A stretch of DNA of 64,000 nt from IMG/VR virus record IMGVR_UViG_3300002060_000001, positions 1-64,000 of that record; one strand, 5' to 3'. Both the position numbers and the translations under genes were made by a program. Below are positions 2,888 through 18,639 of the stretch, in pieces. Source of the DNA: a virus. The number at the start of each line of letters is the position of its first letter. Position 1 is the first letter of the stretch. A model generated the notes under the pieces. The model saw only the letters and a program-made list of their open reading frames with translations. It was not told the origin of the DNA and made no database searches.

Positions 2888-4033
2888 CTAGACCCTCAAC
2901 GGCATGATGACAAAAAGACAGTCCTGATCCTCCTGATCAAGCAACAGGACGGGTGACGCGGGTCCGCTAAAGAACATTTCGGCGTCACGGCTTCCGATAA
3001 GCCCCAGAGCCTCTATCATATATTTTGAGTTCAGGCCTATATCGGTATTCTCACCCCCGAATGATGCCGAGACAACTTCATTCGCCTCACCTGTCTCGGA
3101 TGACCGGACATCTAGGCGAATTTCATCACTCGTGAGGGATAGCTTGATAGAGCGGGCCTTCTCTTTCGTTACCGTCGACACACGATCGATGGCGTCAGAC
3201 AAAATAGGACAATCAACCACTAGACGAGCATTTGAACGCGGGGGGATAACCCGCTCATAGTCAGGGAAAAACCCGTCAATGATTTTAGATGTCAGGGCGG
3301 CACTATGATGCTCAACACAAATCTTAGATTCCGTCACGGACATTTTGACCTGATCAGTGTCAGGGGACGAGTCAATCAAGCGCCTGATTTCCGCCGCCGC
3401 CTTACGGGGAATGATGACCCCCTCCATCCCGTCAGCGCCGTCAGGCAATGACATTGAGGCCTTTGCTAATCTGTGGCCGTCAGTTGCGACACACGTCAGT
3501 TGATCCTCTGTCTGGTGAAAATATATCCCATTCAGATAATAGCGCGTTTCCTCTGTTGAGATTGCGAACCGTGTTTTATCAATGAGGCGTTTCAGATCTC
3601 CCACCGTGAGGGTGAAATCATGCGCCTCACCCGTGTTCGTCATCTTTGGAAAATCGGCCGGCGGCAAGAGCGGTAGTTCAAAATTTGACCGCCCCGCGTT
3701 AATCTTAAGCCTAGCGCCATAAAAATCGCCGTCCTTTGGATTGTTTACCTCAACGCTGATAAGCGCCCCGTTAGGGAGTTTCCGGACAACATCATAGAGC
3801 GTCCGAGCCGGAACCGTGAATGACTTTTCATCCCCCTTGACCTCGATAGACTGAACCTCAAAAGTTTCCGTGATTTCAATATCAAGGTCAGTGGCAGTCA
3901 TAATCATGCTGTTGTCATCCCGCGCCTCAATCAAGACATTGCTCAAAATCGGAATAGTGTTGCGCTTTTCGACAACGCTCTGGGCTAGCTTCAGGGTGTC
4001 CATGAGGACTTTCTTTTCAACTTCGATTTTCAT
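2888..4033 (-). CDS. dnaN: DNA polymerase III beta sliding clamp (bacterial DnaN type)
   Basis: 381 aa, full-length DnaN-like. Diagnostic stretches: VVEKRNTIPILSNVLIEA...MTATDLDIEI...FPKM...RFAISTEETRYYLNGIYF...VATDGHRLA...IDGFFPDYERVIP...PVLL...FVIMPLRV. Confidence 0.95.
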   Translation of the reverse strand: MKIEVEKKVLMDTLKLAQSVVEKRNTIPILSNVLIEARDDNSMIMTATDLDIEITETFEVQSIEVKGDEKSFTVPARTLYDVVRKLPNGALISVEVNNPKDGDFYGARLKINAGRSNFELPLLPPADFPKMTNTGEAHDFTLTVGDLKRLIDKTRFAISTEETRYYLNGIYFHQTEDQLTCVATDGHRLAKASMSLPDGADGMEGVIIPRKAAAEIRRLIDSSPDTDQVKMSVTESKICVEHHSAALTSKIIDGFFPDYERVIPPRSNARLVVDCPILSDAIDRVSTVTKEKARSIKLSLTSDEIRLDVRSSETGEANEVVSASFGGENTDIGLNSKYMIEALGLIGSRDAEMFFSGPASPVLLLDQEDQDCLFVIMPLRV

Positions 4034-4175
4034 TATTCGCTTCCTTGAACGTATTGCGGAACGGGCCGCGGTGATAAAAACTTTTTTACAAACTTATAGT
4101 TACTGCGTGACAGAACAAGAGGGCGGCGCGGGTCTGCCTCCATTTGGGCTATAAGGTTATCTTTAGCGCGAGACA

Positions 4176-4856
4176 TCATAGAAACATATCCGGCTGTTCA
4201 TAGGCCTCCGATACACGCTGACACGCTATATCAAAGAACTTAGGGTCAATCTCAATGCCAGTCGCGGCCCTATTCATCTTTGTGGCCGCGACAAGCGTTG
4301 TTCCGGAACCCATATAGGGGTCAAGAATTGTGTCCTCTTTATCAAGATAGGATAGACACCACTGCATGACGGCTATCGGCTTTTGTGTCGGATGAACGGG
4401 CTTTTCGTTCTGTTCACTGTCCCGCACCATACCGTACCACCGATGATTTAAGCCCCTTATGGCTTTATCAAGATTTGTCCAGGCTAACTCGGCATGACCC
4501 TGATCCATTCGGGTGTTACCGTCAGCCTTAAACCAAACAAACCATGAGCGTGAGTTCGGAAGCTTATCCGCGTAACAGTTACCGCCCCACCAGATATGTT
4601 TATCGGCAAGCGGCAGGAATGGGCGCGGGTCAAAGTCCATATCTCCCGTGTCACCTATCAGTTGATCCTCTGGGCCAAAGTTCCGCTCCCTGACGGCGCT
4701 ATTCTTAGAGCCATGACGGGACGGCTTATAACCATAGCCATACGGTGGGTCCGCCACGATAGCCGTATGACGCGGAAAGTAAGGGTTTTTCACTATCTCA
4801 ACGCTGTCACCCAGAATAAGGCGGGACTTACCTATGATTTCCTCACGGATGATCAT
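4176..4856 (-). CDS. Beta-class N6-adenine/N4-cytosine DNA methyltransferase (CcrM-type fold)
   Basis: Motif IV DPPYG lies near the N-terminus and motif I DPYMGSGTT near the C-terminus. HPTQKPIAVMQWCL is also present. 226 aa. Confidence 0.9.
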   Translation of the reverse strand: MIIREEIIGKSRLILGDSVEIVKNPYFPRHTAIVADPPYGYGYKPSRHGSKNSAVRERNFGPEDQLIGDTGDMDFDPRPFLPLADKHIWWGGNCYADKLPNSRSWFVWFKADGNTRMDQGHAELAWTNLDKAIRGLNHRWYGMVRDSEQNEKPVHPTQKPIAVMQWCLSYLDKEDTILDPYMGSGTTLVAATKMNRAATGIEIDPKFFDIACQRVSEAYEQPDMFL

Positions 4857-5146
4857 GCAAACATATCCGGCGTGTCGGGACAGCGCGGAGCCGCGTCGTC
4901 ATCCGAGTCCTCATGGACAAAAGCCGTGCAAGTTGGTTTCCCGTCTGCGTTATACCGCCATTCCTCTGGATAATCCTCATGCTCAATGCTCTGTAACATC
5001 ATTGTCAGGCCCAGAATGGGACACGGTTCAGCGTCGTCGTCCTGAAAGTCCATTTTCTTACACTTTTCACAGAAAGCGGCCATAAAGATATCGCCTTCCG
5101 TGCCGCTTGACGGCTGATATTTTTTAATCTCATCCATTTTTATCAT
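4853..5146 (-). CDS. Hypothetical acidic Cys-containing protein
   Basis: Start chosen at MIKMDEIKK. The long track form overlaps the upstream gene. Cys pairs CEKC...C...C and an acidic tail. Confidence 0.45.
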   Translation of the reverse strand: MIKMDEIKKYQPSSGTEGDIFMAAFCEKCKKMDFQDDDAEPCPILGLTMMLQSIEHEDYPEEWRYNADGKPTCTAFVHEDSDDDAAPRCPDTPDMFA

Positions 5147-5498
5147 CCAGTTTAGGGTAAAGGTCTCCGCCGACAGGGCCGCGCATAGGCGGTACAGGCG
5201 GAATAGGCGGCGGCTTATCACCTATAAAGCGCAAGCAGACAGAATATTTAGACATCCTTTCTAACTGTTCCCCGCATTGCTTTACCCAGTGCTGATCCGC
5301 GCTTTCTTTGGCTGACGCGACGCAAGTCCTGAACATACGCTCACGGGCAAAGTGATCAATTTCCGTCCTGCATTTGGGTTCCTTAGATGGAAATTGAGGC
5401 GGGCCGCTGATTATAACTGCGGTTGTGGGAATAGCGACAAGGACAGCCCCCACGAATAGCGTCCATTTAAAAACGCGCTTTTTATCAGATGCGTCCAT
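5130..5498 (-). CDS. Hypothetical membrane-anchored protein
   Basis: From ATG at 5498 (MDASDKKRVFKWTLFVGAVLVAIPTTAVII...). One N-terminal TM helix and a Pro-rich C-terminus. Confidence 0.5.
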   Translation of the reverse strand: MDASDKKRVFKWTLFVGAVLVAIPTTAVIISGPPQFPSKEPKCRTEIDHFARERMFRTCVASAKESADQHWVKQCGEQLERMSKYSVCLRFIGDKPPPIPPVPPMRGPVGGDLYPKLDDKNG

Positions 5499-5527
5499 TC
5501 TTTTTCCTTTTGATAGATAGTGAGGCC

Positions 5528-6449: not shown

Positions 6450-6997
6450 TTTAATTTCTTGAGTTCATCAAATGGGCCTTCTTTCGCCCTCTGTGGCGTC
6501 TTTGGGAACCGCCTCTTATGCCATTCTCTGATCTGTCCATAGTTGACTTTACGGCTTATTGCCGCCGCATGACGGCATTGACCCGCGTCAAACATCCCTA
6601 TGTGGCATTCGTCTTTTGTCAGTTTCAGTTGATAGGCCAGAAAGTCATAACAGCGATGACGGGCCGATTGAGTGATAGTCCTGACCGCCAGATTGTCCCT
6701 AACACTTCCGGCATACGCGGGATCAAAAACGGCTTTTTTCCAGAGCGGATCAAAAGCACTATGGGCTATCTGACGCTCTTTCCGTAAAGCGGCATTCGCG
6801 GGACGGCCAAGCGGGCGGCCATTAGATTTATGGCTCCCGACATAGGCCTCACAGTTGTTACAATACCAATAAATCCCATCCTGCAGATCAGCCCGGTGCG
6901 GATATATAACCCGCCCCGTGACCTTACGGGCCTTCTGCGGGCAATGCATACAGATGGGCGCCTGAATGGGTTTCTTTTTGGTCTTTCTCTTAGTCAC
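6446..6997 (-). CDS. Zn-ribbon protein (DUF3268-like pattern)
   Basis: CMHCPQKA...IYPHRADL...YWYCNNCEAYVGSHK...PLGRPANAALRKERQIAHSAFDPLW...ECHIGMFD. I recognise this as the DUF3268-type phage Zn-ribbon family, from memory only. Confidence 0.5.
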   Translation of the reverse strand: MTKRKTKKKPIQAPICMHCPQKARKVTGRVIYPHRADLQDGIYWYCNNCEAYVGSHKSNGRPLGRPANAALRKERQIAHSAFDPLWKKAVFDPAYAGSVRDNLAVRTITQSARHRCYDFLAYQLKLTKDECHIGMFDAGQCRHAAAISRKVNYGQIREWHKRRFPKTPQRAKEGPFDELKKLK

Positions 6998-8111
6998 TCT
7001 TGAGGCTCAAAATTCTATCATATTGAGCCGCGGACTTGTCGGCTAGGAAATTCAATTCCTCACCATAGAGCGCGTCAAAGGCTTTCATTGAGATATTGCG
7101 TTTCCGATAGTCCTCAATGAGTGCGTCCGTGAACTCAACCCATTCCTTATCCGTCATATCGTCAGGATTTTGCGGGAACAGAACCTTATCATTTTTAGAT
7201 TTAGGCTCGTCTTTCGGGGCATCATCAAGAGGCTTACGACCTGTCTTTTTCTCACTGACGGGCTTATCGGCATCTTGGTCCGCCGCATTATCGGGCCTCT
7301 CATCAACCTTTTTTTCAGGCTCACGGCGTTCAGCCCGCCCGTCAATGACATTTCCGGCTGACCCCGCCGCCTTATCCGCCATATGCTGATTTAAGCGGTC
7401 GGCGGGCGTCTGGGCTTGTGTCGCGCTGAAATCGTACATCGTATCGTCACGACTAAAGACGTTCTGAACCTCACTGGATAGCGGGGCAAGTTTTGATGCG
7501 CGGCGGAGCGCCGTCTTGCGCCACATTTCACCCTCATGGGCCTTATTGAACCAAGGGCCGGAACGGGCTTTGACGGCGCTTTTAATGGCTAGGATTTCAT
7601 CCTTACCCATAACATCAAAATATTCACCGCCGTCTGTCGTTTTGACAAGCGCCCACGCACCTATCTTGTCACCGCGATTTTCAAGCGCCTGTTTATGGTG
7701 CAGATAAGTTTCTGTCCCGCGCTGAAAATCAAAATCATCATTCTTACAGATCAATCCAGTCTGAACGTCCTTGACCTCACCAGAATTACGCATCCGCTTG
7801 AGCAGTCCGCCGTACATCGGAATGTAAGTCGCACGGCCCTTAAAGGCTATGATAGCCGCCTCACGCTTACCGTCAGGGAATAGGCCGTCCATAGCGCACT
7901 GACGGAATGCTATCAGAAGTGACTTTTTGCCGTCAGCAGTCTTAAGGCAATCCATCAAATAATTGTCTGACTTAATCGCCCCGTTCATGGTTCGCAGAAA
8001 GCGCTCTGGGTCAACGCTTTCTGGTAAAAAGTCCGCAAGTTGATCCGCCGCGCTCTGAACGACGGGATGAAGGCTTTGCATAACCTTAGTTGAAATTTCA
8101 TTCTTAGCCAT
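6990..8111 (-). CDS. recT: RecT-family single-strand annealing protein with a long C-terminal extension
   Basis: ...AIIAFKGRATYIPMYGGLLKRMRNSGEVKDV...GAWALVKTTDGGEYFDVMGKDEILAI...GPWFNKAHEGEMWRKTALRRASKLAPLS. This is followed by about 130 aa of K/D/E/P-rich tail plus an extra helical domain. Confidence 0.85.
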   Translation of the reverse strand: MAKNEISTKVMQSLHPVVQSAADQLADFLPESVDPERFLRTMNGAIKSDNYLMDCLKTADGKKSLLIAFRQCAMDGLFPDGKREAAIIAFKGRATYIPMYGGLLKRMRNSGEVKDVQTGLICKNDDFDFQRGTETYLHHKQALENRGDKIGAWALVKTTDGGEYFDVMGKDEILAIKSAVKARSGPWFNKAHEGEMWRKTALRRASKLAPLSSEVQNVFSRDDTMYDFSATQAQTPADRLNQHMADKAAGSAGNVIDGRAERREPEKKVDERPDNAADQDADKPVSEKKTGRKPLDDAPKDEPKSKNDKVLFPQNPDDMTDKEWVEFTDALIEDYRKRNISMKAFDALYGEELNFLADKSAAQYDRILSLKSD

Positions 8112-8120
8112 ATTCGCCTC

Positions 8121-8873
8121 CTAAGCGCGGTTGACGAGTTCTTGACTCGCGGTGTGCATGACATCCTCATCAAAGTCTTGATTGAGAACCCACTTGATAT
8201 AGCCGAGATCAACCTCTGACCACTTTTTCCCAAAGTGTTTGCCGAAAGAAACTTTAGGCAGAACGGCGGGCTTACTGCTGATCTCAAGCATTTTTGAAAC
8301 AGACATTCGGGTCAGCATATCCTTAAACAAGTGAGCCGTCAGGACGGCATCCGGTAAAGCCCGATGAAGCTGACTATTAGCAAAGAAAGCCGGCCAGTCC
8401 GTATCTGTTCCGCGATGTAGATTAAGCCAGTAAAATAGCGCCGCGTTCTTATGGCTCGGCGCGTCTGGGAATAACGCAAGCGCAACCCGATAGGTATCAA
8501 TCCACGGCCCGTCAGCCGCCGTCAGTCCCTTGACATATTTTTCATCAAAGCGGCTGTTATGCGCTACATAATACTGTGGCTCCAGACCCAGAGATTTAGA
8601 CACGTTTCTGACCCCCTCATCTGCAGGAGGCGCGTCCTCAAGCATTTCGGGTGTAATGTGATGGATAGCCATAACCTCTGGCGGCATCACGGGATTGACG
8701 GGCTTAATGAGTGTCGAACCCCCATCCATGACCTGTATATCCCCGCGCGCGGGAAGTTCACCGTCTGACATCATGGGGATGAGAACAGGGACGGCTCCGA
8801 ACTCAACAATCTCACTGTCATCGTCCATTCCGTTTGTTTCAGTATCAATGACAAGCGCTTTTAAATTTGACAT
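8121..8873 (-). CDS. DEDDh 3'-5' exonuclease, ExoX-like
   Basis: Exo I motif LVIDTETNG, Exo II HNSRFDEKY, Exo III H..RALPDA. The C-terminal FGKHFGKKWSEVDLGYIKWVL resembles the ExoX C-terminal motif. Confidence 0.8.
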   Translation of the reverse strand: MSNLKALVIDTETNGMDDDSEIVEFGAVPVLIPMMSDGELPARGDIQVMDGGSTLIKPVNPVMPPEVMAIHHITPEMLEDAPPADEGVRNVSKSLGLEPQYYVAHNSRFDEKYVKGLTAADGPWIDTYRVALALFPDAPSHKNAALFYWLNLHRGTDTDWPAFFANSQLHRALPDAVLTAHLFKDMLTRMSVSKMLEISSKPAVLPKVSFGKHFGKKWSEVDLGYIKWVLNQDFDEDVMHTASQELVNRA

Positions 8874-8924: not shown

Positions 8925-9992
8925 TTATTCGGCTGTCGGTCTATCCAGACCCAGTACCTCATTGATCTTGACCTCCGGCATATCCTCAAGTTCATCCTGA
9001 TCCATGAGCCGCTTCCGGTAATAATCAGGAAGCCCGACATTCTGCGGCCCCTCAACGTACCCACCGAGATTTTTATCCCAGAGAGAATAACGCGGCCAGT
9101 GACCGTGACCCGCACCCTGATCCAGACACCATTTGATGCGGTCAAGTGCCATACGGTTTTGACGGACGCCCCACCAGATAGCATCATCCGAAATAGCCGC
9201 GATATTGTGAACATGAGAACCCGTCTTTTCCTGTGCGACAAGGAATGAGCTCTTAATCTCACGGCCCAGAACGCGCGCTATAGCCTCAATGGAAATAGCA
9301 AGTTGTTGATGATAGCCGTAATCACCCAGAGAACGGGAAATAGCACCCGATGAGGCATTCGCGACAGCCTTATAATCCCCTAGCATAACATCTGACGGAA
9401 TCACGTCAGGACGGTTTTTAACAAAAATTCCTGTCGCGGGGTCTTGATAAACAATCGTATGCTCAACCAAACCCTCAAGAAGCCCGTCTCGGATGAGCGG
9501 ATCAGTAGCCAGTTCAAGCGCCATATTCTTAAAGACCTCAACGTCCTTTTTGCCGACGATTGTTTTTCCTGCGTCTATCTGGGCCTGTTTCCAGGCTTTC
9601 TTGTATTGCAAAAATGAGCCATGCATATTCTGCTCATCGTCAACATAAGCGCCTTTATGACCCTCATTTGAGTTCCAGTTCTCAAATTCGTGATAGGCAA
9701 ATTGATCATCTGGCAAATCACGTTCAAGTAGGAAAGCATGAACCGCTTTTCCGAACCGCAGCGGCTCTGTTTCCTCTTGAGGTATTCGGTGTGGGTTATG
9801 GACAGAGCGTTCCCAGTATTTAGCCGGACAAGACTGTTGATTTGCCATAAGGCGCAGACCCGTACTTGAGACGGAATGACCTGTAAAAAGGTCAGGATCA
9901 CCATGATAGCGATCAATCGGAACCAGATAGACACCCGGCTCGCTAATTTGCTGTCCGGCCTCTATGGTCCGAACGGAGATATTCTGTGACAT
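8925..9992 (-). CDS. PD-(D/E)XK (RecB/Cas4-like) nuclease
   Basis: The ATG at 9992 has an upstream AAAGGAA; the track ORF uses a TTG at 10028. RPDVIPSDVMLGDYKAV is a D...(D/E)xK core. Its position beside RecT suggests the recombination exonuclease. Confidence 0.65.
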   Translation of the reverse strand: MSQNISVRTIEAGQQISEPGVYLVPIDRYHGDPDLFTGHSVSSTGLRLMANQQSCPAKYWERSVHNPHRIPQEETEPLRFGKAVHAFLLERDLPDDQFAYHEFENWNSNEGHKGAYVDDEQNMHGSFLQYKKAWKQAQIDAGKTIVGKKDVEVFKNMALELATDPLIRDGLLEGLVEHTIVYQDPATGIFVKNRPDVIPSDVMLGDYKAVANASSGAISRSLGDYGYHQQLAISIEAIARVLGREIKSSFLVAQEKTGSHVHNIAAISDDAIWWGVRQNRMALDRIKWCLDQGAGHGHWPRYSLWDKNLGGYVEGPQNVGLPDYYRKRLMDQDELEDMPEVKINEVLGLDRPTAE

Positions 9993-10063
9993 GGATGCGT
10001 TCCTTTTCTGTAGTTTTCGCGTCGCCAAGCATGACCGAAAGGGAAAACAGGGTCAAGGAACAA

Positions 10064-10081: not shown

Positions 10082-10121
10082 TCCGATTGACGGGGCTATC
10101 CTTTTATGTAATTTGCGACTT

Positions 10122-10399: not shown

Positions 10400-10900
10400 A
10401 TGGCAAAATCTGTCGAAAAAGGAGCCGCGTCGTCTAATGCTGTAGATGACGAGACATTCCGCGCATTTGTGCGTTTAGCCGCAGAGGCAAACGAAGTATG
10501 CGAAAAAGCTAATTCAGCTAAAAAACGACTGCGTAAACAAATTAAAGCGGCGGGCATTCAGCTTGGCGACTTTGACGCTGTGATGAAAATGACTGACTGG
10601 GGACGTTCAGAGGTCAGAGAACATTTTGACCGCCGGACACTATACGCCAAATGGCTGAACCTTCCTGTGGGATCACAAGGCGAAATGTTTACAAGCGGGA
10701 GTGAAAACTCTGAAACAGGCGCAGAAACTCAAGGTGATGTCGTCTTTGCGAAAGCTTATCAAGCGGGTGTCATGGGTAAAGCCGCCGACTGCCCAGAGGA
10801 ATACCTTGATCAAAGCACTAAATGGGCCGAGGGCTATAAAGCCGGACAAGACAGTCTGGCTATGGAACTCATCAACAAAAACAAAGCAACGGCAGAATAA
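10400..10900 (+). CDS. Hypothetical protein (166 aa)
   Basis: Track ORF with an SD-like GGAGA 9 nt upstream of the ATG. There is only weak GapR/DUF2312-like resemblance in residues 18-90, which is not enough to call. Confidence 0.5.
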   Translation: MAKSVEKGAASSNAVDDETFRAFVRLAAEANEVCEKANSAKKRLRKQIKAAGIQLGDFDAVMKMTDWGRSEVREHFDRRTLYAKWLNLPVGSQGEMFTSGSENSETGAETQGDVVFAKAYQAGVMGKAADCPEEYLDQSTKWAEGYKAGQDSLAMELINKNKATAE

Positions 10901-11469
10901 TGACTGTCGCTATAGCGCTTGATACATCCTCAAGACGCACTGGCTATGTGAGGGGGCGGACCGATGGTTCCGGCCCCTTAACTATATCACACTTTGGCCT
11001 CAACCGTGAGGACAAGAATGATATCGGTGCAGGGATGGTTGAATTTAGAGAGGCCTTGAGGCCGCGCCTATCGGGTGTTGATATTATTTTCATGGAAAAA
11101 CCCGCGCTGCCCTTTGGAAAGCTGAACTATAACACACTCCGAATCCTATACGGGATTGCCGGAATGGTTGAGGTCATGGCGATCGATATGGGCATCCCGT
11201 GCTTTGATGTTGATAACGGAAAACACAAAAAGCTGATTTACGGTAAGGGTGGGGCTAAACCCGCCAATGCAGAAGAATTGGCCGCCGCTTGGGGTTTTGA
11301 GTGTCAGAATGACGATGAGGCTGACGCCGCCGGAGTATTCCTGCACAGTGTCAAAACCATGTATCCGGCTGACTTTCAACACTGGCTTGACATCAAAACT
11401 AATAGTCCGCGAGTTGATTTCATCAAGAAAGTAAAGGGCGGAAAAAAGGCTCAAAAGGTTCTAATTTAA
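10900..11469 (+). CDS. RuvC-like Holliday junction resolvase
   Basis: IALDTSSRRTGYV (Asp1), IIFMEKP (Glu), NDDEADAAGVFLH (Asp-Asp), 189 aa. Start via TAATG overlap. Confidence 0.7.
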   Translation: MTVAIALDTSSRRTGYVRGRTDGSGPLTISHFGLNREDKNDIGAGMVEFREALRPRLSGVDIIFMEKPALPFGKLNYNTLRILYGIAGMVEVMAIDMGIPCFDVDNGKHKKLIYGKGGAKPANAEELAAAWGFECQNDDEADAAGVFLHSVKTMYPADFQHWLDIKTNSPRVDFIKKVKGGKKAQKVLI

Positions 11470-11539: not shown

Positions 11540-13021
11540 ATGTCAGGTATGCCCCACTCATTCGGCGTCGAGCAGTCACTGCTAGGCGCTTTAATTTTTG
11601 ACAATCAACAGATTGATCTGGTCGCGGATAAACTCTCCGAGGCCTCTTTTTTTGCCGAACAACATATCATTGTTTGGCGCGCGCTTCAGCAGATACGCCT
11701 TAAGGGCGGGATAGCTGACGCAAACACCCTTCTTGAATTTTTTGAGCGGGAAAATCAGTTAAAGAAAATCGGCGGCGATGAGTACCTAGCCCAGATGGTC
11801 AATAACGCGGCCCTTGAGCCTGAACTTGATGAATACACTGAAATTCTTGTTGACCTTCAACACCGCCGCGCGATGATCCGGATAGGACAGGCGCTTGAGG
11901 CTAGTTCCGTTAAACCTGAAATCGGTCAGGACTCATCCGATATAGCCGTCACGGCCCAGACGGAACTTTCTGCCATAATGATGGGAACAACCGTAAAGCC
12001 GGCCACAAATATCAAAGCCGGAATGAAAAAATATGTTCAAAAAGTCCGCGCGGGCAAAGAGGGAAATGTTGAATCCTGCCTATCGACGGGCTCTGAAGTT
12101 CTTAACCGCAGACTCGGCGGGGGTTTTTATAATTCAGACCTGATCATTCTCGCGGGGCGGCCCTCAATGGGTAAAACGCAACTGGCTCTGACGCTTCTTG
12201 AAAGTATGGCGTCAAGCGAGTCCGTGAAAGAGATTTCACAAGGTAAGAAAGCCCTAGTTCCGTTTTTCAGTCTTGAGATGGATGAGGAAAGTGTGTTCGG
12301 CAGAATGCTGACAACAAATAGTCATAAACGGTTCGGTAAACGGTACTCCTCACGGAAAATGCGCTCATATGACATCCCTGATCAACAGCTTGACGCCATA
12401 GAGGAACATCTTGAGGAATTGAGCGAAACAATGCTCATTGATGATCAGGGCGGGATCAAAATAAGAGATATGGAGGTCAGGTGTCTAAATATAGAACGGA
12501 CACACGGGCGGCCCATTGATGCTATCCTTGTGGATTATCTGCAAATCTTAACCGGAGCGCCCGATGACGTTAAGGCGGGTAAGACAGCAGAGGTCACGGG
12601 TATCTCTGCAGGGCTTAAGCGTCTGGCTAAACGCTTTGATGTCCCCGTTATCGCACTCGCTCAACTTAGCCGCGGTGTTGAAAGCCGTGATGATAAACGT
12701 CCTCAACTTTCAGATCTCCGAGATTCAGGCGCTATTGAGCAAGATGCGGATGTTGTGATGTTTGTCTATCGTGAGGCGTACTATCACGAGCGCGCTGAAC
12801 CAGACAGCTCAAGCGACAAACATCAAGCGTGGTCTGTGAAGCTTGAAAAGATCAGAAACGTGATGACGATCATAACCGCAAAACAGCGTCTCGGCCCCGT
12901 GGGTTCAGATGATATTTTCTGTGATGTATTCACCGGATATGTAGGGGACTGCAGTCCTACAGATATGCACGGCTCCGCCGCTCACAATGATCCCCGATGG
13001 TCTGGAAATAATCAGGCCTAG
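11540..13021 (+). CDS. dnaB: Replicative DNA helicase DnaB
   Basis: Walker A GRPSMGKTQLAL, FFSLEM, Walker B ILVDYLQIL, VIALAQLSRGVESRDDKRPQLSDLRDSGAIEQDADVVMFVYRE. Confidence 0.95.
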   Translation: MSGMPHSFGVEQSLLGALIFDNQQIDLVADKLSEASFFAEQHIIVWRALQQIRLKGGIADANTLLEFFERENQLKKIGGDEYLAQMVNNAALEPELDEYTEILVDLQHRRAMIRIGQALEASSVKPEIGQDSSDIAVTAQTELSAIMMGTTVKPATNIKAGMKKYVQKVRAGKEGNVESCLSTGSEVLNRRLGGGFYNSDLIILAGRPSMGKTQLALTLLESMASSESVKEISQGKKALVPFFSLEMDEESVFGRMLTTNSHKRFGKRYSSRKMRSYDIPDQQLDAIEEHLEELSETMLIDDQGGIKIRDMEVRCLNIERTHGRPIDAILVDYLQILTGAPDDVKAGKTAEVTGISAGLKRLAKRFDVPVIALAQLSRGVESRDDKRPQLSDLRDSGAIEQDADVVMFVYREAYYHERAEPDSSSDKHQAWSVKLEKIRNVMTIITAKQRLGPVGSDDIFCDVFTGYVGDCSPTDMHGSAAHNDPRWSGNNQA

Positions 13022-13154: not shown

Positions 13155-13385
13155 ATGAATATGCATCATTTTAACGTAGATATGGCCATAAAACATGGAT
13201 TAGTCATAGCTATCATCCTGCAATACATGAACGATTGTCAGGGAATGAACGGCGGCGAACCCCTATCTTTCAGCTATGATGAGCTCTGTAAAAAATTCTC
13301 ATATATTCCAAAAGGTGAGTTGAAATCCGCCATAACCTATATTTTTCATAAATCTTTAGGCCCAGTTCAGGTTGTTGTAAGATGA
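13155..13385 (+). CDS. Hypothetical protein (76 aa)
   Basis: Track ORF in an AT-rich stretch. Its stop overlaps the next start (ATGA). Confidence 0.45.
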   Translation: MNMHHFNVDMAIKHGLVIAIILQYMNDCQGMNGGEPLSFSYDELCKKFSYIPKGELKSAITYIFHKSLGPVQVVVR

Positions 13386-14317
13386 CTAATAAAACTGAAA
13401 TAGAGGTTGAAAGCCTAGACGAGCCATATGTGACCGTTCCGAACTCTTTTGTCCGTGGATCACTCTCATCAAATGCAAAAATATTGATGATCATGTTGAA
13501 GTCTCACTCTGAAAACTGGGTCTTTAATAAAAAACAAATTGGTAAATCACTTGAATGGGGTGAGGGGAAATTAACAAAGCACATCAAAGAACTTGAGGAC
13601 GCTAATCACCTTCACCGCCGTCAGCCTGTTTCAGAATCGGGCGCTATAATACCCGGTCCGTGGATATGGCAATTAAGCTATCAAGGAAAAGCCGGACGGT
13701 CTGAAAAATCCGCCCCCCCCAAAATCCGAGGGGCGGAAACTCCGAGGGTCGGAAAATCACCCCCCATAAGAAGAAAAAATATTAAGAAGCCAAATTCTAA
13801 GAATAATCCCCCCTCCCCCTTTGATAAATCTTTAGGATCATTTCACTACATGACAGAGGGTGAAAAGTATCCGATTCCCGATGAGTTTTATCCAGGGCGT
13901 GACATCAAAGATTATGCGCTTATAGATTTGAGAATATATCCTCAAGAATACCGAGATATTATTGTTAATTTTTCAGAGTATTGGCGCGATAGGTCTAAAA
14001 ATAAGAATGGTAAAAAGACACCGCGCGGATGGAAAGCTTGTCTCCGAACTTGGTTAAATAAAGAGGCGGTTTCATTAAAAGCTAAGTGGCGGGAACAACC
14101 GTTTGATTATAGGACTAAAGAAGAAGGCGGCGCGGCGGCGGTTCCGGATGACATTCAGGAATATGCCCCAGAATACTGGGAACTTCACGTCCGGCGTTAT
14201 TCTGATCAAGGTGACTGGACAGCCGTCGGGCCTAAGCCGGATGAGGCTGACTGCGTTGCGCCGGATGAAATCTTGCAAAAATATGGTTTTCCGATAAATA
14301 ACGAATCACAGGGGTAG
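13382..14317 (+). CDS. Replication initiator/organiser-like protein (wHTH N-terminus)
   Basis: The N-terminal YVTVPNSFVRGSLSSNAKILMIMLKSH...IGKSLEWGEGKLTKHIKELEDANHL is winged-helix-like. A low-complexity linker follows, and the C-terminal FSEYWRDRSKNKNGKKTPRGWKACLRTWLNKE is typical of phage replication organisers. The gene sits between dnaB and dnaG. Confidence 0.5.
   Translation: MTNKTEIEVESLDEPYVTVPNSFVRGSLSSNAKILMIMLKSHSENWVFNKKQIGKSLEWGEGKLTKHIKELEDANHLHRRQPVSESGAIIPGPWIWQLSYQGKAGRSEKSAPPKIRGAETPRVGKSPPIRRKNIKKPNSKNNPPSPFDKSLGSFHYMTEGEKYPIPDEFYPGRDIKDYALIDLRIYPQEYRDIIVNFSEYWRDRSKNKNGKKTPRGWKACLRTWLNKEAVSLKAKWREQPFDYRTKEEGGAAAVPDDIQEYAPEYWELHVRRYSDQGDWTAVGPKPDEADCVAPDEILQKYGFPINNESQG
13704..13767 (+). 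repeat. Four tandem 16-17-bp A-tract/G-rich repeats followed by an AT-rich tract
   Basis: AAAAATCCGCCCCCCCC / AAAATCCGAGGGGCGG / AAACTCCGAGGGTCGG / AAAATCACCCCCCAT. The two central copies are 14/16 identical. An AT-rich stretch at 13768-13810 follows. Confidence 0.6.
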
Positions 14318-14332
14318 AAAAGGCAAGGCTCT

Positions 14333-14905
14333 ATGAGCCTCTGGACAAATGATGAATTTGCGCTTGCGGTAAAGCTGACAAGTGTTCAAGGCCGCTCCTT
14401 TAGTGAAACCGCTGAAATCCTAACTCGTCACGGGTACAGTCAAAGAACCGTTGATGAAATTAAAGATAAGATAAAAAATGATGCCCCGACATCATGGGCT
14501 TTGATTGAGGAGGCCCGTCAAGCCCGTAAGGCGTCTGAAATATGTGGTGTTGCGGCCCCCGCGCCCAAGCGCCGTATGAAAGACGTCGGAGACGCTTTTG
14601 TAAATTTTATAGCTAGTCTTGAACCGGGTCTTTCAGAAGAAACCGTTTGTTGGCAGTCCCGTCAGGCTAGTTTTGATTGCAATATTACGGACACCCGTGT
14701 CGCGGCAGCGCGCGCCGGATATGTTTTGACCCCCGATGAGATTGAAGGGATTGCATATTATGAGGCTATAGCGAAAGATAAGTGCCTATGGCCTCTTGAT
14801 AATGGAAATGCTTGCGGGTCCGTCCGTGAGGTTGATAAATATTGCGGGGCTCATCATTGCCGCTCTTTGGGTGACTATCAAAGAAAAATGACTTTCACTT
14901 ATTAG
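14333..14905 (+). CDS. gcrA: GcrA-like cell-cycle regulator homologue
   Basis: N-terminal WTNDEFALAVKL...GRSFSETAEIL and C-terminal CLWPLDNGNACGS...YCGAHHC match the GcrA family layout (W-T-x-E...C-x-WP...C-G...C..H). Confidence 0.7.
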   Translation: MSLWTNDEFALAVKLTSVQGRSFSETAEILTRHGYSQRTVDEIKDKIKNDAPTSWALIEEARQARKASEICGVAAPAPKRRMKDVGDAFVNFIASLEPGLSEETVCWQSRQASFDCNITDTRVAAARAGYVLTPDEIEGIAYYEAIAKDKCLWPLDNGNACGSVREVDKYCGAHHCRSLGDYQRKMTFTY

Positions 14906-15569
14906 CGGCCCTTTCTCTCGCCTCATAACGGTTTTTGTCCTTATGGGCCTCTGTTGTTATAGCCCTTAAATTATTCGGCCCCCAGAACTCAATAAGTTCA
15001 AGAACTGGGATGTGACCGAAATCTCTATAAACCCTATAAAGCGGAATGATGTGATCAATTTGATATTGCCCATCAATAAGCTCCTCACCCGTTACTGAAC
15101 AAAATCCATCCTGACGGGTATAGAAAAAACTAGAATATTCATTCGGCGTCGACATAAGCGCGTAAGCCGCGGCGCATGCTTTATGCCAATATCCTGTTTT
15201 TGACTTTCCTGTTCCGTCCCAGTCGGTATGCCAACCCAGATTATAACGCACACCGCCGCACATAGGACATCCGGCCCCGTGACCGCCGTGATTAAATGGT
15301 TTTGGAAACTCCCTAAATAGTATTTTGTCCGGCCTTACAATAAGACCAGGCTCCCCAGTGTCCGGATGGCGCCAAGTGTAGCGGGATTGAGAACGCTTTC
15401 TGGGCCACTCAAATTTAGGCTCAAGTGTTTGCTTCTGCATAAGCGCTTTCATAAGGGCAAAGGCTCGCGCCGGATGACGATGCCAATACCGCTGAACCCG
15501 CAGTGACGGGGTATCAAAAGACATCACGGGGACGTTTTTGACTGCAGGGGGTTGAGTGGGTGATTCCAT
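14895..15569 (-). CDS. HNH endonuclease, inverted inside a plus-strand operon
   Basis: CPMCGG...IDHIIPLYRV...NNLRAITTEAHKDKN is an HNH core. It is the only minus-strand gene between 10122 and 27770. Confidence 0.75.
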   Translation of the reverse strand: MESPTQPPAVKNVPVMSFDTPSLRVQRYWHRHPARAFALMKALMQKQTLEPKFEWPRKRSQSRYTWRHPDTGEPGLIVRPDKILFREFPKPFNHGGHGAGCPMCGGVRYNLGWHTDWDGTGKSKTGYWHKACAAAYALMSTPNEYSSFFYTRQDGFCSVTGEELIDGQYQIDHIIPLYRVYRDFGHIPVLELIEFWGPNNLRAITTEAHKDKNRYEARERAANK

Positions 15570-15622
15570 CTAAATCTTATATCGCGGCAGATTTTTGTTG
15601 CAATGCCTCACGGAGTCGGCTT

Positions 15623-16942
15623 ATGGCTGACGACGCGAAAACTAAATCCATGAAAGGGAAAACCGCTATGAAAGCCGACCAGTCTTATAAAATCGTCAGC
15701 CTTATCGTTGAAAACATCAAAAACATCCGAGCCGTTGAAATTAAACCTGACGGGAATATGGTTGAAATAACGGGCCGTAATGGCGCGGGAAAAACATCAA
15801 TCCTAGATTCCATCTGGTGGGCGCTTGCCGGAAAAGGGCCCATTCAAGGCAAGCCTATCCGTGACGGTCAGGAAAAAGCCACCATTGAACTTAGTCTCGG
15901 CCCCGTCACGGTAACGCGGACGTTTACCGCCACAAAGACAGGCGGATATACGACATCTCTTATTCTTGAGGGTGTGGACGGCATGAAATATGACTCGCCG
16001 CAGTCTATCCTTAACGCGATTGTTGGAGATCTGACGTTTGATCCTCTGGCATTTACGCGGGAAAGCCCCAAGGAACAATTTGCTATGTTGCAAAAGTTCG
16101 TTGAGGGGTATGACTTTGATGACGCGGCCATGCGGCGAAAGAACTTTTACACGGAACGCACCGATGTGAATCGTCAGGCTAAAGCCCTTGAGACTAAAAT
16201 TCAGGGCATACCTGATTTACCAGAGGGTGAGGAAATCCTTGATCTTACGGCCCTGACGGCATCCTATCAAAAAGCTGTAGCGGATCAGCGTGAGGTTGAT
16301 GATAAAACCCGCCGTATCGCGTCTGCCGTTCAGGATATTGAGGACAGAACCTTTAAGGTTGCTCAATTAAAGAAAGAGATTGAAAAGCTTGAGGGTGAAA
16401 TGACGGGCCTTGAACGGATAGCCAAAATGACAGCCCCCGCGCCTATTGATATCGCGTCCATTGAGGCGGATATGGAAAAAGCCCAGTCACAAACTGAACT
16501 GGCGGCTGATCAGCGCCGCAAGAAAGAACAGTCAGCAGAACTGCTTGAGGTTCAATCTAGGTCCGCCGAATTAACGGCTAAAATTGAAACGATCGATGAG
16601 GAGCGTCAGAAAGCCATTCAGGAAAGCAAAATTCCCGTTCAGAACATCACATTCGGATTTGATGAAAAAGACAACGGCATTGTCATGCTTGACGGCGTAC
16701 CTTTTGAACAAGGTTCTGACGCTCAACAGTTGCGGGCCGCCATTGAAATAGCTATAGCGATGAACCCACAATTACGGGTCTGCCGCGTCCGAGACGGCTC
16801 CTTAATTGATGAGGATGGAATGAAAGCCCTTGCGGAATATGCTGAAAAACACGATTTCCAGATTTGGATTGAGCGGGTTGATACATCCGGCAAGTCTGGA
16901 ATTGTTATCGAGGACGGCGCACTGCTTAAACCTGACGCTTAA
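15623..16942 (+). CDS. SMC/SbcC/RecF-like AAA ATPase with a coiled-coil insert
   Basis: Start at ATG 15623, GGAG 7 nt upstream. VENIKNIRAVEI...ITGRNGAGKTSILDSIWWAL (Walker A), a central coiled coil, and C-terminal QLRAAIEIAIAM...VRDGSLIDEDG (signature/Walker B-like). Confidence 0.7.
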   Translation: MADDAKTKSMKGKTAMKADQSYKIVSLIVENIKNIRAVEIKPDGNMVEITGRNGAGKTSILDSIWWALAGKGPIQGKPIRDGQEKATIELSLGPVTVTRTFTATKTGGYTTSLILEGVDGMKYDSPQSILNAIVGDLTFDPLAFTRESPKEQFAMLQKFVEGYDFDDAAMRRKNFYTERTDVNRQAKALETKIQGIPDLPEGEEILDLTALTASYQKAVADQREVDDKTRRIASAVQDIEDRTFKVAQLKKEIEKLEGEMTGLERIAKMTAPAPIDIASIEADMEKAQSQTELAADQRRKKEQSAELLEVQSRSAELTAKIETIDEERQKAIQESKIPVQNITFGFDEKDNGIVMLDGVPFEQGSDAQQLRAAIEIAIAMNPQLRVCRVRDGSLIDEDGMKALAEYAEKHDFQIWIERVDTSGKSGIVIEDGALLKPDA

Positions 16943-16950
16943 GGCTCAAG

Positions 16951-18639
16951 ATGCCTAGATTTGATGACGGGTTTAAAGAACAAATCCGTGATGCGGTCAG
17001 GGTCAGCCAGATAGTTGAAAAACATGTTAAGCTGAAACGGTCAGGCCGAGAACTTGTCGGCCTGTCCCCGTTCACGAATGAAAAAACCCCTAGCTTTTAT
17101 GTAAATGACGCGAAACAGTTCTATCACTGTTTTTCATCTGGGATGCACGGAGATGTGTTTGCCTTTGTGATGGAACTGCAGGGAATGACGTTTCCAGAGT
17201 CGGTTGAGTATCTCGCGGGCATAGCGGGGCTTGAGATGCCGTCCTATACGCCTCAACAGCGTCAACAGGACGACAGACGCAAGCTTTTATTTGCCGCGCT
17301 TAACGATGCACAGGACTTTTTTGTTCACTCATTAAAGAGTGAGGGAGCGGCTATCGCGCGTGAATACTTGGCTCACAGAAAGATTGATGAGGGTTCGGTG
17401 TCTAAATGGGGTCTGGGGTACGCGCCGCTCGTGTCCTCATCCCTGCCAAGCGCCCTAAAGAAACACAAAAAGGATATTTTGATTGAGGCGGGGCTTATCC
17501 GTGAAAACGCGCGCGGAACCTATGGGTTCTATCGTAACCGCCTGACATTCCCGATACGGGACAGGCAGGGCCGCGTCACATCATTCGGCGCCCGTGCGCT
17601 TGAGGATGATCAAAAACCCAAATATGTGAACGGTCAAGAAAGTCCGGTATTTAGTAAATCAAAGAACCTCTATGGCCTTAATGTATCGAGCGCCGCTATT
17701 GGTCTGAACCGTCAGGCGAACGGATTGATTTTGTCAGAGGGCTATCTTGATGTCATAGCCCTAGACCGCGCCGGAATACCACTGGGCGTCGCGCCATTAG
17801 GGACATCCGTGACAGACGATCACCTGACGGAACTCTGGAGATGGGGGCCGGAGCCTATTATTTGTCTTGATGGTGACAAGGCGGGTTATCGTGCTGCGGG
17901 AAAGATTATTGAAAAAACACTTCCCCGAATAGGCGGCGGGCGAACCGTTATGTTCGCAAGACTGCCGTCAGGACAAGACCCTGACGATGTTTTGCGTCAA
18001 GGCGGCCCTGAAGCTCTAAAAGCAATATTAAAATCCCCCGTCCCGATGCCTCGCCTGATATGGGAACGTGAACTTAATGTTGAGAGAACCGACACCCCAG
18101 AGCGGCGCGCGGCTTTTAAGGCGCGGCTTAATGAGCATACGGCGCTCATCAAAGACAAAGACACCGCCCGTCATTATCGGGACGCCTTCTATAGGTGGAC
18201 GCGGGATCACTACAGGCGAGGGCAGAAAAATGCATCCCAGTCACTGCAATCCGGCGGTGTCATAGGTCATAGGGGTCTTGGGATTTTAGTCAGTTGCATT
18301 GACAACCCGGAAATCCTTGAGGAAATTGATGAACAGTTAATCATGGCCGAGTGGTCTCCTGAATGTAAGGCTATTTTTGACCTATTGTTTTCAGCTTATA
18401 TGAACAATCTTGAAATCAATCGTGACGTTATAGTTGATGGACTTCTGGTTGATATGAACACAAACGCGGCTGATATTCTGGAATCATACCCGCGCGGAAA
18501 ACAGATAGAAAAAAACGGACATCAATGGCGTTCAATCATAGATTCTGTTTATCTCTTGCGGAAGGATGAGCATAAACCAAAGACCCTTGCGGACGCTATG
18601 CGGGAACAAGGCATCAGACGCAGAATAACAAAAAAATAA
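16951..18639 (+). CDS. dnaG: DnaG-type primase with a degenerate zinc-binding motif
   Basis: SPFTNEKTPSFYVNDAKQFYHCFSSGMHGDVF aligns to the canonical CPFHNEKTPSF...YHCFGCGAHG. TOPRIM motifs EGYLDVIAL and CLDGDKAGYRAA are present. Confidence 0.9.
   Translation: MPRFDDGFKEQIRDAVRVSQIVEKHVKLKRSGRELVGLSPFTNEKTPSFYVNDAKQFYHCFSSGMHGDVFAFVMELQGMTFPESVEYLAGIAGLEMPSYTPQQRQQDDRRKLLFAALNDAQDFFVHSLKSEGAAIAREYLAHRKIDEGSVSKWGLGYAPLVSSSLPSALKKHKKDILIEAGLIRENARGTYGFYRNRLTFPIRDRQGRVTSFGARALEDDQKPKYVNGQESPVFSKSKNLYGLNVSSAAIGLNRQANGLILSEGYLDVIALDRAGIPLGVAPLGTSVTDDHLTELWRWGPEPIICLDGDKAGYRAAGKIIEKTLPRIGGGRTVMFARLPSGQDPDDVLRQGGPEALKAILKSPVPMPRLIWERELNVERTDTPERRAAFKARLNEHTALIKDKDTARHYRDAFYRWTRDHYRRGQKNASQSLQSGGVIGHRGLGILVSCIDNPEILEEIDEQLIMAEWSPECKAIFDLLFSAYMNNLEINRDVIVDGLLVDMNTNAADILESYPRGKQIEKNGHQWRSIIDSVYLLRKDEHKPKTLADAMREQGIRRRITKK

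Follow-up and report, generated by a model that had tools for sequence, protein, structure and literature searches.

Why should a phage that encodes a bacterial-type sliding clamp (DnaN), a replicative helicase (DnaB), a primase (DnaG) and SSB, but seemingly no DNA polymerase, carry a clamp of its own, and whose polymerase would that clamp serve? The question arose from a stretch of 64,000 nt (here called the window), which comprises bases 1 to 64000 of the 71,330-bp record IMGVR_UViG_3300002060_000001. The first 49 bases of the record are identical to its last 49 bases, which closes the 71.3-kb genome into a circle, and CheckV rated its completeness at 100%. The phage is an uncultured, marine, siphovirus-like virus with a complete genome. 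The 7.3 kb beyond the window contain a dozen or so small ORFs in addition to MuF, a Mu-type portal and the greater part of TerL, in agreement with the first-pass annotation, which had assigned the unseen remainder to the rest of terL, the portal and the start of MuF. On the circularised genome, TerL is a 502-aa ORF that spans the junction.

DnaN, DnaB, DnaG and SSB were found where the first-pass annotation had placed them, with strong Pfam scores, and the RecD-like helicase, the RuvC-like resolvase, RecT and the exonucleases that it had named were present as well (Table 1). Domain sets were full: the N- and C-terminal domains of DnaB, the zinc ribbon, core and Toprim domains of DnaG, and the OB fold and acidic tip of SSB. 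The canonical DDEIPF tip was borne out, the SSB gene itself lying outside the range (2888-18639) that had been given for the replisome set. The recombination genes also include an endonuclease VII-like resolvase, and the likely partner of RecT is the PDDEXK-type exonuclease. The family matched by the RNase_T/DnaQ-type exonuclease, PHROG 192, is labelled "DNA polymerase exonuclease subunit." Compared with the chromosomal proteins of six Caulobacterales/Hyphomonadaceae genomes, phage DnaB was 37-41% identical, DnaG 40-45% and SSB 52-57%. A 190-aa ORF (14333-14905) was considered as a GcrA candidate and rejected, as it had no match to PF07750 (six frames, E ≤ 10) and no Pfam hit.

Table 1. Features of the phage genome that bear on replication, recombination and the clamp.
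Feature	Coordinates	Strand	Evidence and remarks
terL, 5' part	1..376	-	Terminase_6C domain; remainder of the gene lies across the junction, as far as genome position 70149
dnaN, full-length bacterial-type beta sliding clamp, 381 aa	2888..4033	-	Three Pfam clamp domains; PHROG 947
N6/N4 DNA methyltransferase, 226 aa	4176..4856	-	Pfam N6_N4_Mtase; C-terminal tail YEQPDMFL
RecT single-strand annealing protein	6990..8111	-	PF03837, E 1.6e-32
RNase_T/DnaQ-type 3'-5' exonuclease, 250 aa	8121..8873	-	PF00929, E 2e-13; PHROG 192, E 5e-44
PDDEXK-type exonuclease (DUF3799)	8925..10028	-	PF12684, E 4e-19
RuvC-like Holliday junction resolvase	10900..11469	+	PHROG 159, E 4.6e-15
DnaB replicative helicase, 493 aa	11540..13021	+	PF00772 and PF03796 (DnaB, DnaB_C), E 5e-69
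DnaD-like initiator/helicase-loader candidate	13382..14317	+	PHROG 186 and PHROG 428
AAA_23/SMC_N-type (SbcC- or RecF-like) ATPase, 460 aa	15560..16942	+	Pfam; PHROG 1499, E 4e-83
DnaG primase, 562 aa	16951..18639	+	Zinc ribbon, DNAG_N, Toprim
RecD-like SF1 helicase	25766..26959	+	AAA_30 and UvrD_C_2
SSB, acidic tip DDEIPF	54386..54877	+	PF00436, E 7e-34; translation ends ...DLDDEIPF
Virion protein, 869 aa, predicted tailspike-like parallel beta-helix	59211..61820	-	Structure model and Foldseek

The entire record was searched in six frames with HMMs of described families. At E ≤ 10, it returned no match to PF00476 (PolA), PF00136 (PolB), PF07733 (PolC/DnaE), PF03175 (protein-primed PolB), PF09250 (PrimPol), PF00817 (Y family), PF13177 (clamp loader) or PF02739 (5'-3' exonuclease). 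The same method recovered DnaN of the record itself, T7 PolA and T4 PolB, and PF13177 was recovered in 14 of 14 control genomes. The lack of a family A, B or C polymerase, first noticed in the window, therefore holds for the complete genome, including the 7.3 kb outside the window.

The clamp protein matched PF00712, PF02767 and PF02768 above the curated cut-offs over residues 1-380 (E 1e-30 to 5e-38). Its best solved match was the Caulobacter clamp 5wce (E 1e-100), and it aligned end to end with solved clamps. The hydrophobic pocket for partners, between domains II and III, is invariant relative to the E. coli and alphaproteobacterial clamps at R164, Y165, L167, T184, G186, H187, R188, L189, P257, R261, V262, N335, Y338, V375, M377, P378 and R380. 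These residues correspond in E. coli to R152, Y153, L155, T172, G174, H175, R176, L177, P242, R246, V247, N320, Y323, V360, M362, P363 and R365 (numbering from general knowledge of this clamp and from PMC11139829). The protein ends in MPLRV, which fits the M-P-x-R tail. In length class, three-domain organisation, pocket and C-terminal motif, it resembles the Caulobacterales (5wce/6izo) and E. coli (1mmi) clamps. It differs from cellular clamps in being virus-encoded and only 43-55% identical to them, in lying beside neither dnaA nor recF, and in carrying short insertions within domain I and at residues 224-225; insertions specific to the phage lineage occupy residues 68-70 and approximately 98-107. 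Residues 160-310 were also matched by PHROG 3007/12598, which is labelled RusA-like and comprises half-size "mini beta-clamp" phage proteins. Compared with these, the clamp studied here has three domains and ring-forming ends and should, judging from its sequence, act as a true clamp rather than as a pocket-only mimic. It is predicted to form a head-to-tail homodimer ring that a DnaX complex could load onto primed DNA. A clamp loader is absent from the genome, so the host would have to provide this step.

Phage DnaN was 51-55% identical to the chromosomal DnaN of Hellea, Robiginitomaculum, Litorimonas and Fretibacter. In the tree, it nested in the Hellea/Robiginitomaculum/Litorimonas clade (SH-aLRT 96), which itself sits within a Caulobacterales-type clade (SH-aLRT 99). 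By this placement, the clamp was captured from the marine Hellea/Litorimonas/Robiginitomaculum lineage of the Alphaproteobacteria. The captured clamp has diverged at phage rates, yet the pocket to which Pol III alpha, epsilon, delta and further clients bind has retained all its residues. The stem branch of the phage clamps is long, at 0.83 changes per site, which could mean an altered specificity. A capture from this source also yields a host prediction for an uncultured group of marine phages, namely the Hellea/Litorimonas/Robiginitomaculum group of stalked marine Alphaproteobacteria. The position of dnaN is kept in two further related phages (67% and 43% identity), and its dN/dS of 0.15-0.18 equals that of the neighboring genes. 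Thus, dnaN is a conserved core gene under purifying selection in three related phages.

A complete genome with no polymerase, a full-length clamp with an intact pocket and a canonical SSB tip together mean that the phage almost certainly depends on its host for both the Pol III core and the clamp loader. In the hybrid replisome that we propose, the phage encodes DnaB, DnaG, SSB with its acidic recruiting tip, the full-length clamp and the recombination set, along with a DnaD-like initiator candidate, which would be the origin-binding component. For the catalytic core of Pol III, the DnaX clamp loader and the enzymes of Okazaki-fragment maturation, it would rely on the host, because the closed genome has no such genes. 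The clamp itself would most likely be an ordinary one: the host loader would place it on phage primer ends, and the loaded clamp would tether the host polymerase. A clamp of its own would increase or safeguard the supply of clamps during rapid replication and recombination-dependent replication of the phage, and phage enzymes, the neighboring methyltransferase among them, could dock on it. The supply rationale is one that we infer, because a clamp with a host-identical pocket gives no obvious selective advantage. Taken as a whole, with the phage clamp working as an ordinary clamp alongside the host polymerase and loader, this hybrid replisome is probably the right explanation.

The proposed arrangement extends a familiar one. 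Phage lambda and Bacillus phage SPP1 combine a phage initiator, loader, helicase and SSB with the host primase, Pol III, clamp and clamp loader. As in these phages, origin recognition and the helicase would be phage functions here, and the polymerase and clamp loader host functions. Unlike lambda and SPP1, the present phage adds a primase and a clamp, so that its borrowing would be confined to the catalytic core, the clamp loader and the maturation enzymes. The first-pass annotation had suggested that the phage captures host Pol III through its clamp and SSB tip. The absence of a polymerase, the intact pocket and the canonical tip uphold the dependence on host Pol III. The idea of a capture specific to phage DNA did not survive, because clamps do not distinguish between DNA molecules, a point also made in PMC4889955.

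We also evaluated how common a clamp without a polymerase is. DnaN was found in 175 of 50,697 phage records, so a phage-encoded DnaN is indeed uncommon, yet it is well documented (PHROG 947). The layout had further been called an unusual division of labor. This description does not fit: PolA, PolB and PolC were absent from all 18 other cultured DnaN-bearing phages (35-80 kb, from six host phyla or classes), and stand-alone PolIII-beta in polymerase-less phages has been described (Kazlauskas, Krupovic and Venclovas 2016, PMC4889955). More generally, about half of the phages larger than 40 kb have no DNA polymerase (PMC11348598). With a complete genome, no family A, B or C polymerase and no clamp loader, the present phage belongs with the stand-alone viral PolIII-beta carriers as defined in PMC4889955. 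A clamp without a polymerase is a documented, recurrent phage pattern and not an oddity, and our main finding is an ordinary one, a further well-resolved example of something already published. The case is useful, as what stand-alone viral clamps do is a question acknowledged to be open (PMC4889955). A donor lineage that can be named, a pocket frozen amid drift and the status of dnaN as a core gene in three relatives argue for a real, host-compatible function.

Among the stand-alone DnaN phages in PHROG 947 are Rhizobium phage 16-3 (p081), RR1-A, Aurantimonas phage AmM-1 and Salinibacter phage M1EM-1. The present phage shares with the 16-3 type a full-length three-domain clamp in an early replication/recombination region, a genome in the 35- to 80-kb range and the lack of PolA, PolB, PolC and a clamp loader. 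Unlike that of 16-3, its clamp falls outside the 16-3 clade in the tree, as an independent capture from another host lineage, and its bacterial-type set is fuller (DnaB, DnaG and SSB) than in the region of 16-3 that was read.

Alternatively, the clamp could be kept mainly as a dock for phage enzymes. The clearest candidate is the adjacent methyltransferase, whose QPDMF tail would anchor it behind the fork, such that new phage DNA would be methylated as it is made. In the present phage, the methyltransferase gene is found two genes upstream of dnaN, and the same holds in the 67%-identity relative. Its tail extends beyond the catalytic core in an alignment to solved methyltransferases. QPDMF matches Q-x-x-[LM]-[FL] at the extreme C-terminus, outside the fold; positions 1, 4 and 5 fit the clamp motif Q-phi-x-[LM]-[FL], whose alternative form is Q-phi-x-[LM]-x-[FL], whereas position 2 is a proline instead of the usual aliphatic residue. 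Clamp-binding-type motifs were present in the last 35 residues of 108 of the 120 methyltransferase homologues, as opposed to 4.1 ± 1.9 in shuffled tails, and Q-x-D-[LM]-F was present in 79 (117 of the tails were distinct, the flanks of the motif varying); since the homologues are related, part of this conservation is by descent. In structural models, methyltransferase residues 219-225 docked in the canonical clamp pocket, contacting T184, G186, H187, L189, P257, Y259, V262, N335 and V375-R380, with an ipSAE of 0.63 as opposed to 0.01 for the best of three controls. Of 80 solved complexes, 58 came up to the ipSAE mark used, as did 2 of 110 mismatched pairs, and the runs shared at least 89% of contacts with a partner pLDDT of at least 52. 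This pass may nonetheless reflect memory of solved clamp-peptide complexes. The same pocket receives the known clients Pol II (QLGLF) and Pol IV (QLVLGL), through C-terminal motifs, and Pol III alpha (QADMF), through an internal one (PMC11139829); no DNA methyltransferase is among the beta-clamp partners given there.

Another possible use of such a dock is late transcription coupled to replication, as with gp45 of T4 and MuC of phage Mu. The operon that holds dnaN continues into terS and terL, and late transcription in phage Mu makes use of the clamp (PMC12867686). Several observations weigh against the dock as the main reason for keeping the clamp. The strict QL[SD]LF motif, proposed at the outset as a mark of clamp binding, occurred in no phage protein, and the relaxed motif produced the neighboring methyltransferase as the one candidate client. 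Three phage contigs carry homologous tailed methyltransferases with no DnaN within 10 kb; the motif, if real, would therefore work with host clamps and leave the phage clamp unexplained. The third of the three related phages keeps DnaN without this methyltransferase beside it. We thus regard a clamp kept mainly for docking as unlikely. A separate and tentative suggestion is that small orphan phage N6/N4 methyltransferases form an unlisted class of beta-clamp clients that dock through a Q-x-D-[LM]-F tail and methylate at the fork. If so, they would be a bacterial-virus counterpart of the eukaryotic DNMT1-PCNA pairing, which serves here as an analogy. Binding of the tail would add a new client type to the bacterial clamp hub and would suggest a simple way in which phage DNA could be shielded from restriction as it is replicated. 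A methyltransferase paired with a phage-owned, host-derived clamp could also help explain why clamps are retained in polymerase-less phages.

The phage clamp could also take the place of a host clamp put out of action during infection, its divergence making it insensitive to the disabling agent. That agent could be a host-shutoff inhibitor of the phage, comparable to Gp168 of Staphylococcus phage Twort, or a clamp-targeting toxin or defense of the host. Additional copies of dnaN make cells resistant to griselimycin, and DnaN is the target of the Caulobacter toxin SocB. The long stem and the lineage-specific insertions around a frozen pocket would suit such a role, and phage proteins that inhibit clamps exist (PMC8565349). 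However, the phage genome yielded no identifiable gene for an inhibitor or toxin, and RecT, the exonucleases and DnaB are as diverged as dnaN among the related phages. Because the divergence of the clamp matches that of other early genes, its long branch needs no special acceleration. Replacement of a disabled host clamp is accordingly improbable, and the hybrid replisome remains our preferred reading.

A polymerase of a novel or very divergent family might have been missed among the hypothetical proteins or on an unrecorded part of the genome; divergent phage PolAs overlooked in routine annotation have been recognized by structure prediction (PMC11348598). All ORFs of at least 300 aa were examined, and a family or fold was assigned to each except two, of 414 and 480 aa. 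The largest unannotated ORF (869 aa) had no Pfam, PHROG or PDB sequence match. Its alignment-based model (pLDDT 91.8) gave phage tailspikes as the best Foldseek matches (4ru5 and 4y9v, probability 1.0), and on the basis of this predicted beta-helix fold, it was excluded as a hidden polymerase. The 480-aa ORF (57694-59136) lies beside it in the virion module, is rich in Gly, Thr, Ala and Ser and has few charged residues; it was called structural from position and composition. The 414-aa ORF, directly upstream of the major head gene, matches only PHROGs of unknown function and has a His-rich N-terminal domain followed by a charged helical tail, a composition from which it was called scaffold-like. 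In a related 70-kb phage, 52 kb carry the same gene set and no polymerase family. With a self-closing genome rated complete and not even weak matches at E ≤ 10, a missed polymerase is very improbable.

Finally, the clear cellular origin of the clamp would also suit a functionless passenger gene acquired from the host, but this is hardly credible given its low dN/dS, its intact reading frame and invariant pocket, its conserved position in three phages with only 40-50% identity between their shared genes, and the recurrence of clamps among many unrelated polymerase-less phages.

The record is a single virus contig of 71,330 bases, and the window covers bases 1 to 64,000. The contig opens and closes with the same 49 bases, the identity going no further, as is characteristic of an assembly closed into a circle. 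IMG/VR classifies the record under direct terminal repeats, with a CheckV completeness of 100. The unique circle of 71,281 bp is ~95% coding and, by simple greedy calling, has roughly 100 ORFs. No tRNAs were found in the genome, and when 18 kb was compared with cultured phages by megablast, no near-identical one was returned. The first-pass annotation had correctly guessed that terL, the portal, and MuF filled the remainder: the 7.3 kb beyond the window hold MuF, a Mu-type portal, a series of small ORFs, and TerL (502 aa), which runs across the circular junction.

The proposed replisome accessory set (DnaN, DnaB, DnaG, and an SSB with a DDEIPF tip) was borne out by Pfam domains, and the RecD-like helicase and the RuvC-like, RecT, and exonuclease functions were all found. 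The DnaB, DnaG, and SSB of the phage are clearly bacterial in type, with 37 to 41%, 40 to 45%, and 52 to 57% identity, respectively, to their chromosomal counterparts in six Caulobacterales/Hyphomonadaceae genomes. The dnaN gene is grouped with recombination genes, as it also does in RHph phages and in 16-3, a Rhizobium phage with a stand-alone DnaN.

Features of the phage genome, with positions in the record
Feature	Position	Strand	Assignment or evidence
dnaN	2888-4033	-	Three Pfam beta-clamp domains, E 1e-30 to 5e-38, covering residues 1-380
DNA methyltransferase (MTase)	4176-4856	-	N6/N4
RecT	6990-8111
RNase_T/DnaQ-type exonuclease	8121-8873
PDDEXK exonuclease	8925-10028
RuvC-like resolvase	10900-11469
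DnaB	11540-13021	+	Pfam DnaB N and C domains
DnaD-like initiator/loader	13382-14317
190-aa ORF	14333-14905	+	See text
224-aa ORF	14895-15569	-	Weak HNH_4 match, E 0.009
DnaG	16951-18639	+	Pfam zinc ribbon, primase core, and Toprim domains
DNA methyltransferase	19433-21448		Multi-module C5
DNA methyltransferase	21445-22047		MT-A70
Endonuclease VII-like protein	21887-22612
RecD-like SF1 helicase	25766-26959
101-aa ORF	30343-30648	-	Lysis/tail region
414-aa protein	50661-51905	-	PHROG families of unknown function
SSB	54386-54877	+	Pfam OB fold; C-terminal end DLDDEIPF
DNA methyltransferase	55864-57123		ParB-fused N6/N4
480-aa protein	57694-59136	-	Judged structural
869-aa ORF	59211-61820	-	Tailspike-like model
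2354-aa protein			J-type central tail fiber
553-aa protein			FtsK/HerA-like ATPase

Two further ORFs lie among the replication genes. The 224-aa ORF runs antisense to the plus-strand replication operon that surrounds it and may represent a homing endonuclease that has entered between replication genes. The 190-aa ORF directly follows the initiator gene and has a helix-turn-helix-looking N terminus, a Cys/His-rich C-terminal region, and the end QRKMTF-TY, of which QRKMTF was considered as a candidate clamp motif. We took this protein to resemble GcrA, but the GcrA HMM gave no match and the assignment was rejected.

A six-frame HMM search of the entire record (E <= 10) gave no match to PolA, PolB, PolC/DnaE, protein-primed PolB, PrimPol, or Y-family polymerases, and none to the DnaX/HolB clamp-loader family or Pol I-type 5'-3' exonucleases. 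The dnaN of the same record, T7 gene 5, and T4 gene 43, used as positive controls, were all recovered by this procedure. The absence of a polymerase, first noted for the window, thus extends to the complete record.

All ORFs of at least 300 residues were examined, and a family or fold was assigned to most of them. The 414-aa protein encoded immediately upstream of the major head gene matched only PHROG families of unknown function. With repeated DGHAH-type histidine clusters in its N-terminal domain and a helical, very acidic and basic C-terminal half, it reads as scaffold-like by composition, with a possible metal-binding head. The largest orphan, the 869-aa ORF, had no sequence-level match, the PDB sequence search included. 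Its single-sequence AlphaFold model was unusable (pLDDT 35.5); a model from an alignment of 25 homologues reached a pLDDT of 91.8 and a pTM of 0.87, and its best PDB matches were phage tailspikes and depolymerases (4ru5 and 4y9v, probability 1.0). The 480-aa protein, also without a match in the PDB sequence search, was judged structural from position and composition only. An ESM Atlas look-up gave no usable lead for either the 869-aa or the 480-aa protein.

The phage clamp itself looks functional from its sequence. When it is aligned with the E. coli clamp and eight clamps of Alphaproteobacteria, all residues lining the partner pocket between domains II and III are invariant, as is the C-terminal M-P-L-R-V, whereas overall identity is only 34 to 55%. 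The closest non-self match, at 67% identity, was a protein encoded on another, syntenic phage contig. Between these two clamps dN/dS was 0.15 to 0.18, with dS near saturation, and was indistinguishable from the values for RecT, the exonucleases, and the MTase.

A third relative, a 70,123-bp ENA scaffold of which 52 kb was walked, keeps the clamp in position. On one side it reads DnaB, then divergent PDDEXK exonuclease, RNase_T exonuclease, RecT, small genes, DnaN, small genes, terS, and TerL; on the other it reads DnaB, initiator, DnaG, MT-A70, and RecD-like helicase, in the order seen in the window. No polymerase family was found among the called genes of the 52 kb. The scaffold clamp is 43% identical to that of the window, with the pocket motifs kept. 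Xenologous replacement was rejected as the source of this distance, since other early genes are equally diverged (RecT, 44%; RNase_T exonuclease, 39%; PDDEXK exonuclease, 49%; DnaB, 53%), as is the portal (49%). The kept position and the equal divergence of neighboring genes therefore indicate that the clamp is an old, vertically inherited core gene of the phage group rather than a recent passenger.

All remaining top matches to the clamp (51 to 55% identity) were chromosomal DnaN proteins of marine Hellea, Robiginitomaculum, Litorimonas, Fretibacter, and Maricaulaceae. Among species-representative genomes only Alphaproteobacteria were returned, at 43 to 50%, and a single-protein scan of IMG/VR gave no DnaN relatives. 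A maximum likelihood tree of 51 sequences, rooted on E. coli, was built by quick search with SH-aLRT as the only measure of support. In it the two phage clamps paired (support 100); their stem is long, at 0.83 changes per site, and the pair falls inside an 11-member clade with marine Hellea/Robiginitomaculum/Litorimonas-type genera (support 96), itself inside an 18-member Caulobacterales-type clade (support 99). This nesting identifies the clamp as a capture from the probable host lineage. Clamps of the 16-3 type and other phage clamps fell elsewhere, on long branches and with unsure placement; the window clamp thus differs from the 16-3 group in being a separate capture.

We also evaluated how common a clamp without a polymerase is in phages. 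By tblastn, a clamp was found in 175 of 50,697 phage records, some of them fragments or bacterial contigs, with hosts including Arthrobacter, Ralstonia, Mycobacterium, Cellulophaga, Rhizobium, Salinibacter, Microcystis, Paracoccus, Caulobacter, and Thermus. Eighteen DnaN-bearing complete genomes of 35 to 80 kb were picked from across this list, and none had a PolA, PolB, or PolC match (E <= 0.001). Of phages larger than 40 kb, just over half have a DNA polymerase (PMC11348598). Kazlauskas et al. ask what stand-alone clamps do, viral and cellular DNA being indistinguishable to clamps (PMC4889955). Searching the literature for DnaN or sliding clamps by name as phage-encoded proteins gave no paper. 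Dependence on a host polymerase, as first proposed, stands, but given the 18 genomes and this precedent the division of labor is not the unusual one it was taken for: the phage is a further case of an already known kind. PHROG 3007 and 12598, labeled "RusA-like Holliday junction resolvase," match clamp residues 160 to 310 in domains II and III; this name is probably a misannotation of half-size clamp homologues from phages. A match in Burkholderia phage BcepC6B bears the same label.

The first-pass annotation had suggested a search of phage proteins for QL[SD]LF. Across ~100 ORFs, strict QL[SD]LF, QLxLF, and variants gave 0 matches, and relaxed clamp motifs occurred at or below chance overall. 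A single unsupported match, QEPLF, lies ten residues from the C terminus of the 101-aa ORF. The MTase, whose gene lies two genes upstream of dnaN, has the C-terminal end YEQPDMFL, which reads YEQRDLFL in the 67% relative. E. coli Pol III alpha has QADMF as its internal clamp motif, and a review gives the consensus Q-phi-x-[LM]-[FL] (PMC11139829). The MTase has Pro instead of phi at position 2 and was for this reason missed by the initial patterns. Homology to solved beta-class methyltransferases ends at residue 216 to 218, which puts the motif in a tail outside the fold. Such a motif is present in the last 35 residues of 108 of 120 homologues (P0161-P0280), a family of small phage methyltransferases that are related to one another, compared with 4.1 +/- 1.9 for shuffled tails. 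Q-x-D-[LM]-F was found in 79 of the 120, and 36 carry two motifs, with flanks that differ in sequence and length. The second, Q-E-x-[FLM]-x-L, often follows the Q-x-D-[LM]-F tail; both resemble beta-clamp-binding motifs.

The modeled MTase-clamp complex had an interface score (ipSAE) of 0.63 (0.58 to 0.68 in three runs), as opposed to 0.01 for the best of three controls. Among solved complexes 58 of 80 reached the ipSAE mark, as did 2 of 110 mismatched pairs. At least 89% of contacts were common to the runs, with a partner pLDDT of at least 52. MTase residues 219 to 225 were placed against clamp residues 184, 186-187, 189, 257, 259, 262, 335, 359, 361, 375, and 377-380, the canonical pocket. 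The model and its controls support the predicted binding of the tail to the clamp, although, many clamp-peptide complexes being solved, the pass may reflect likeness rather than binding. The Pro at position 2 and the kinship among the homologues are further caveats. The review PMC11139829 makes no mention of a methyltransferase among clamp partners, and none was found in our literature search. DnaN as a general companion of the tailed MTase was rejected, as on three phage contigs the 10 kb around homologous MTases contained no DnaN; a functional tail would therefore work with host clamps too. The tail alone does not explain the presence of a phage clamp.

Origin recognition, helicase, primase, SSB, and clamp are thus all phage-encoded functions; the genome has no gene for a polymerase, a clamp loader, or FEN. 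On standard replisome knowledge, the initiator would open the origin, phage DnaB and DnaG would build the fork, and the SSB tip would recruit host partners; the host DnaX complex would load clamps and the host Pol III core would synthesize DNA. Because its pocket is host-identical, the phage clamp should be loadable by the host loader and able to bind host alpha and epsilon. A hybrid replisome of phage clamp with host Pol III and loader is, in our judgment, a likely overall explanation. Clamps would be consumed at each Okazaki fragment and each recombination-primed end, and the most likely benefit of an own clamp would be supply.

The four DNA methyltransferases of different classes (see table) point to heavy investment in anti-restriction methylation. 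Two features of the ENA scaffold, both at L107:13626-19993, are absent from the window genome: an 860-aa TerL with an intein carrying a LAGLIDADG endonuclease and, between TerL and portal, a 1149-aa ORF without a Pfam or PHROG match. The 869-aa tailspike-like protein and its 480-aa neighbor are 73 to 74% identical to their counterparts on the scaffold (L105:10001-14123), whereas portal, MuF, RecT, DnaB, and DnaN are only 39 to 53% identical between the two phages. This suggests that a host-recognition module was recently exchanged or is under strong constraint.
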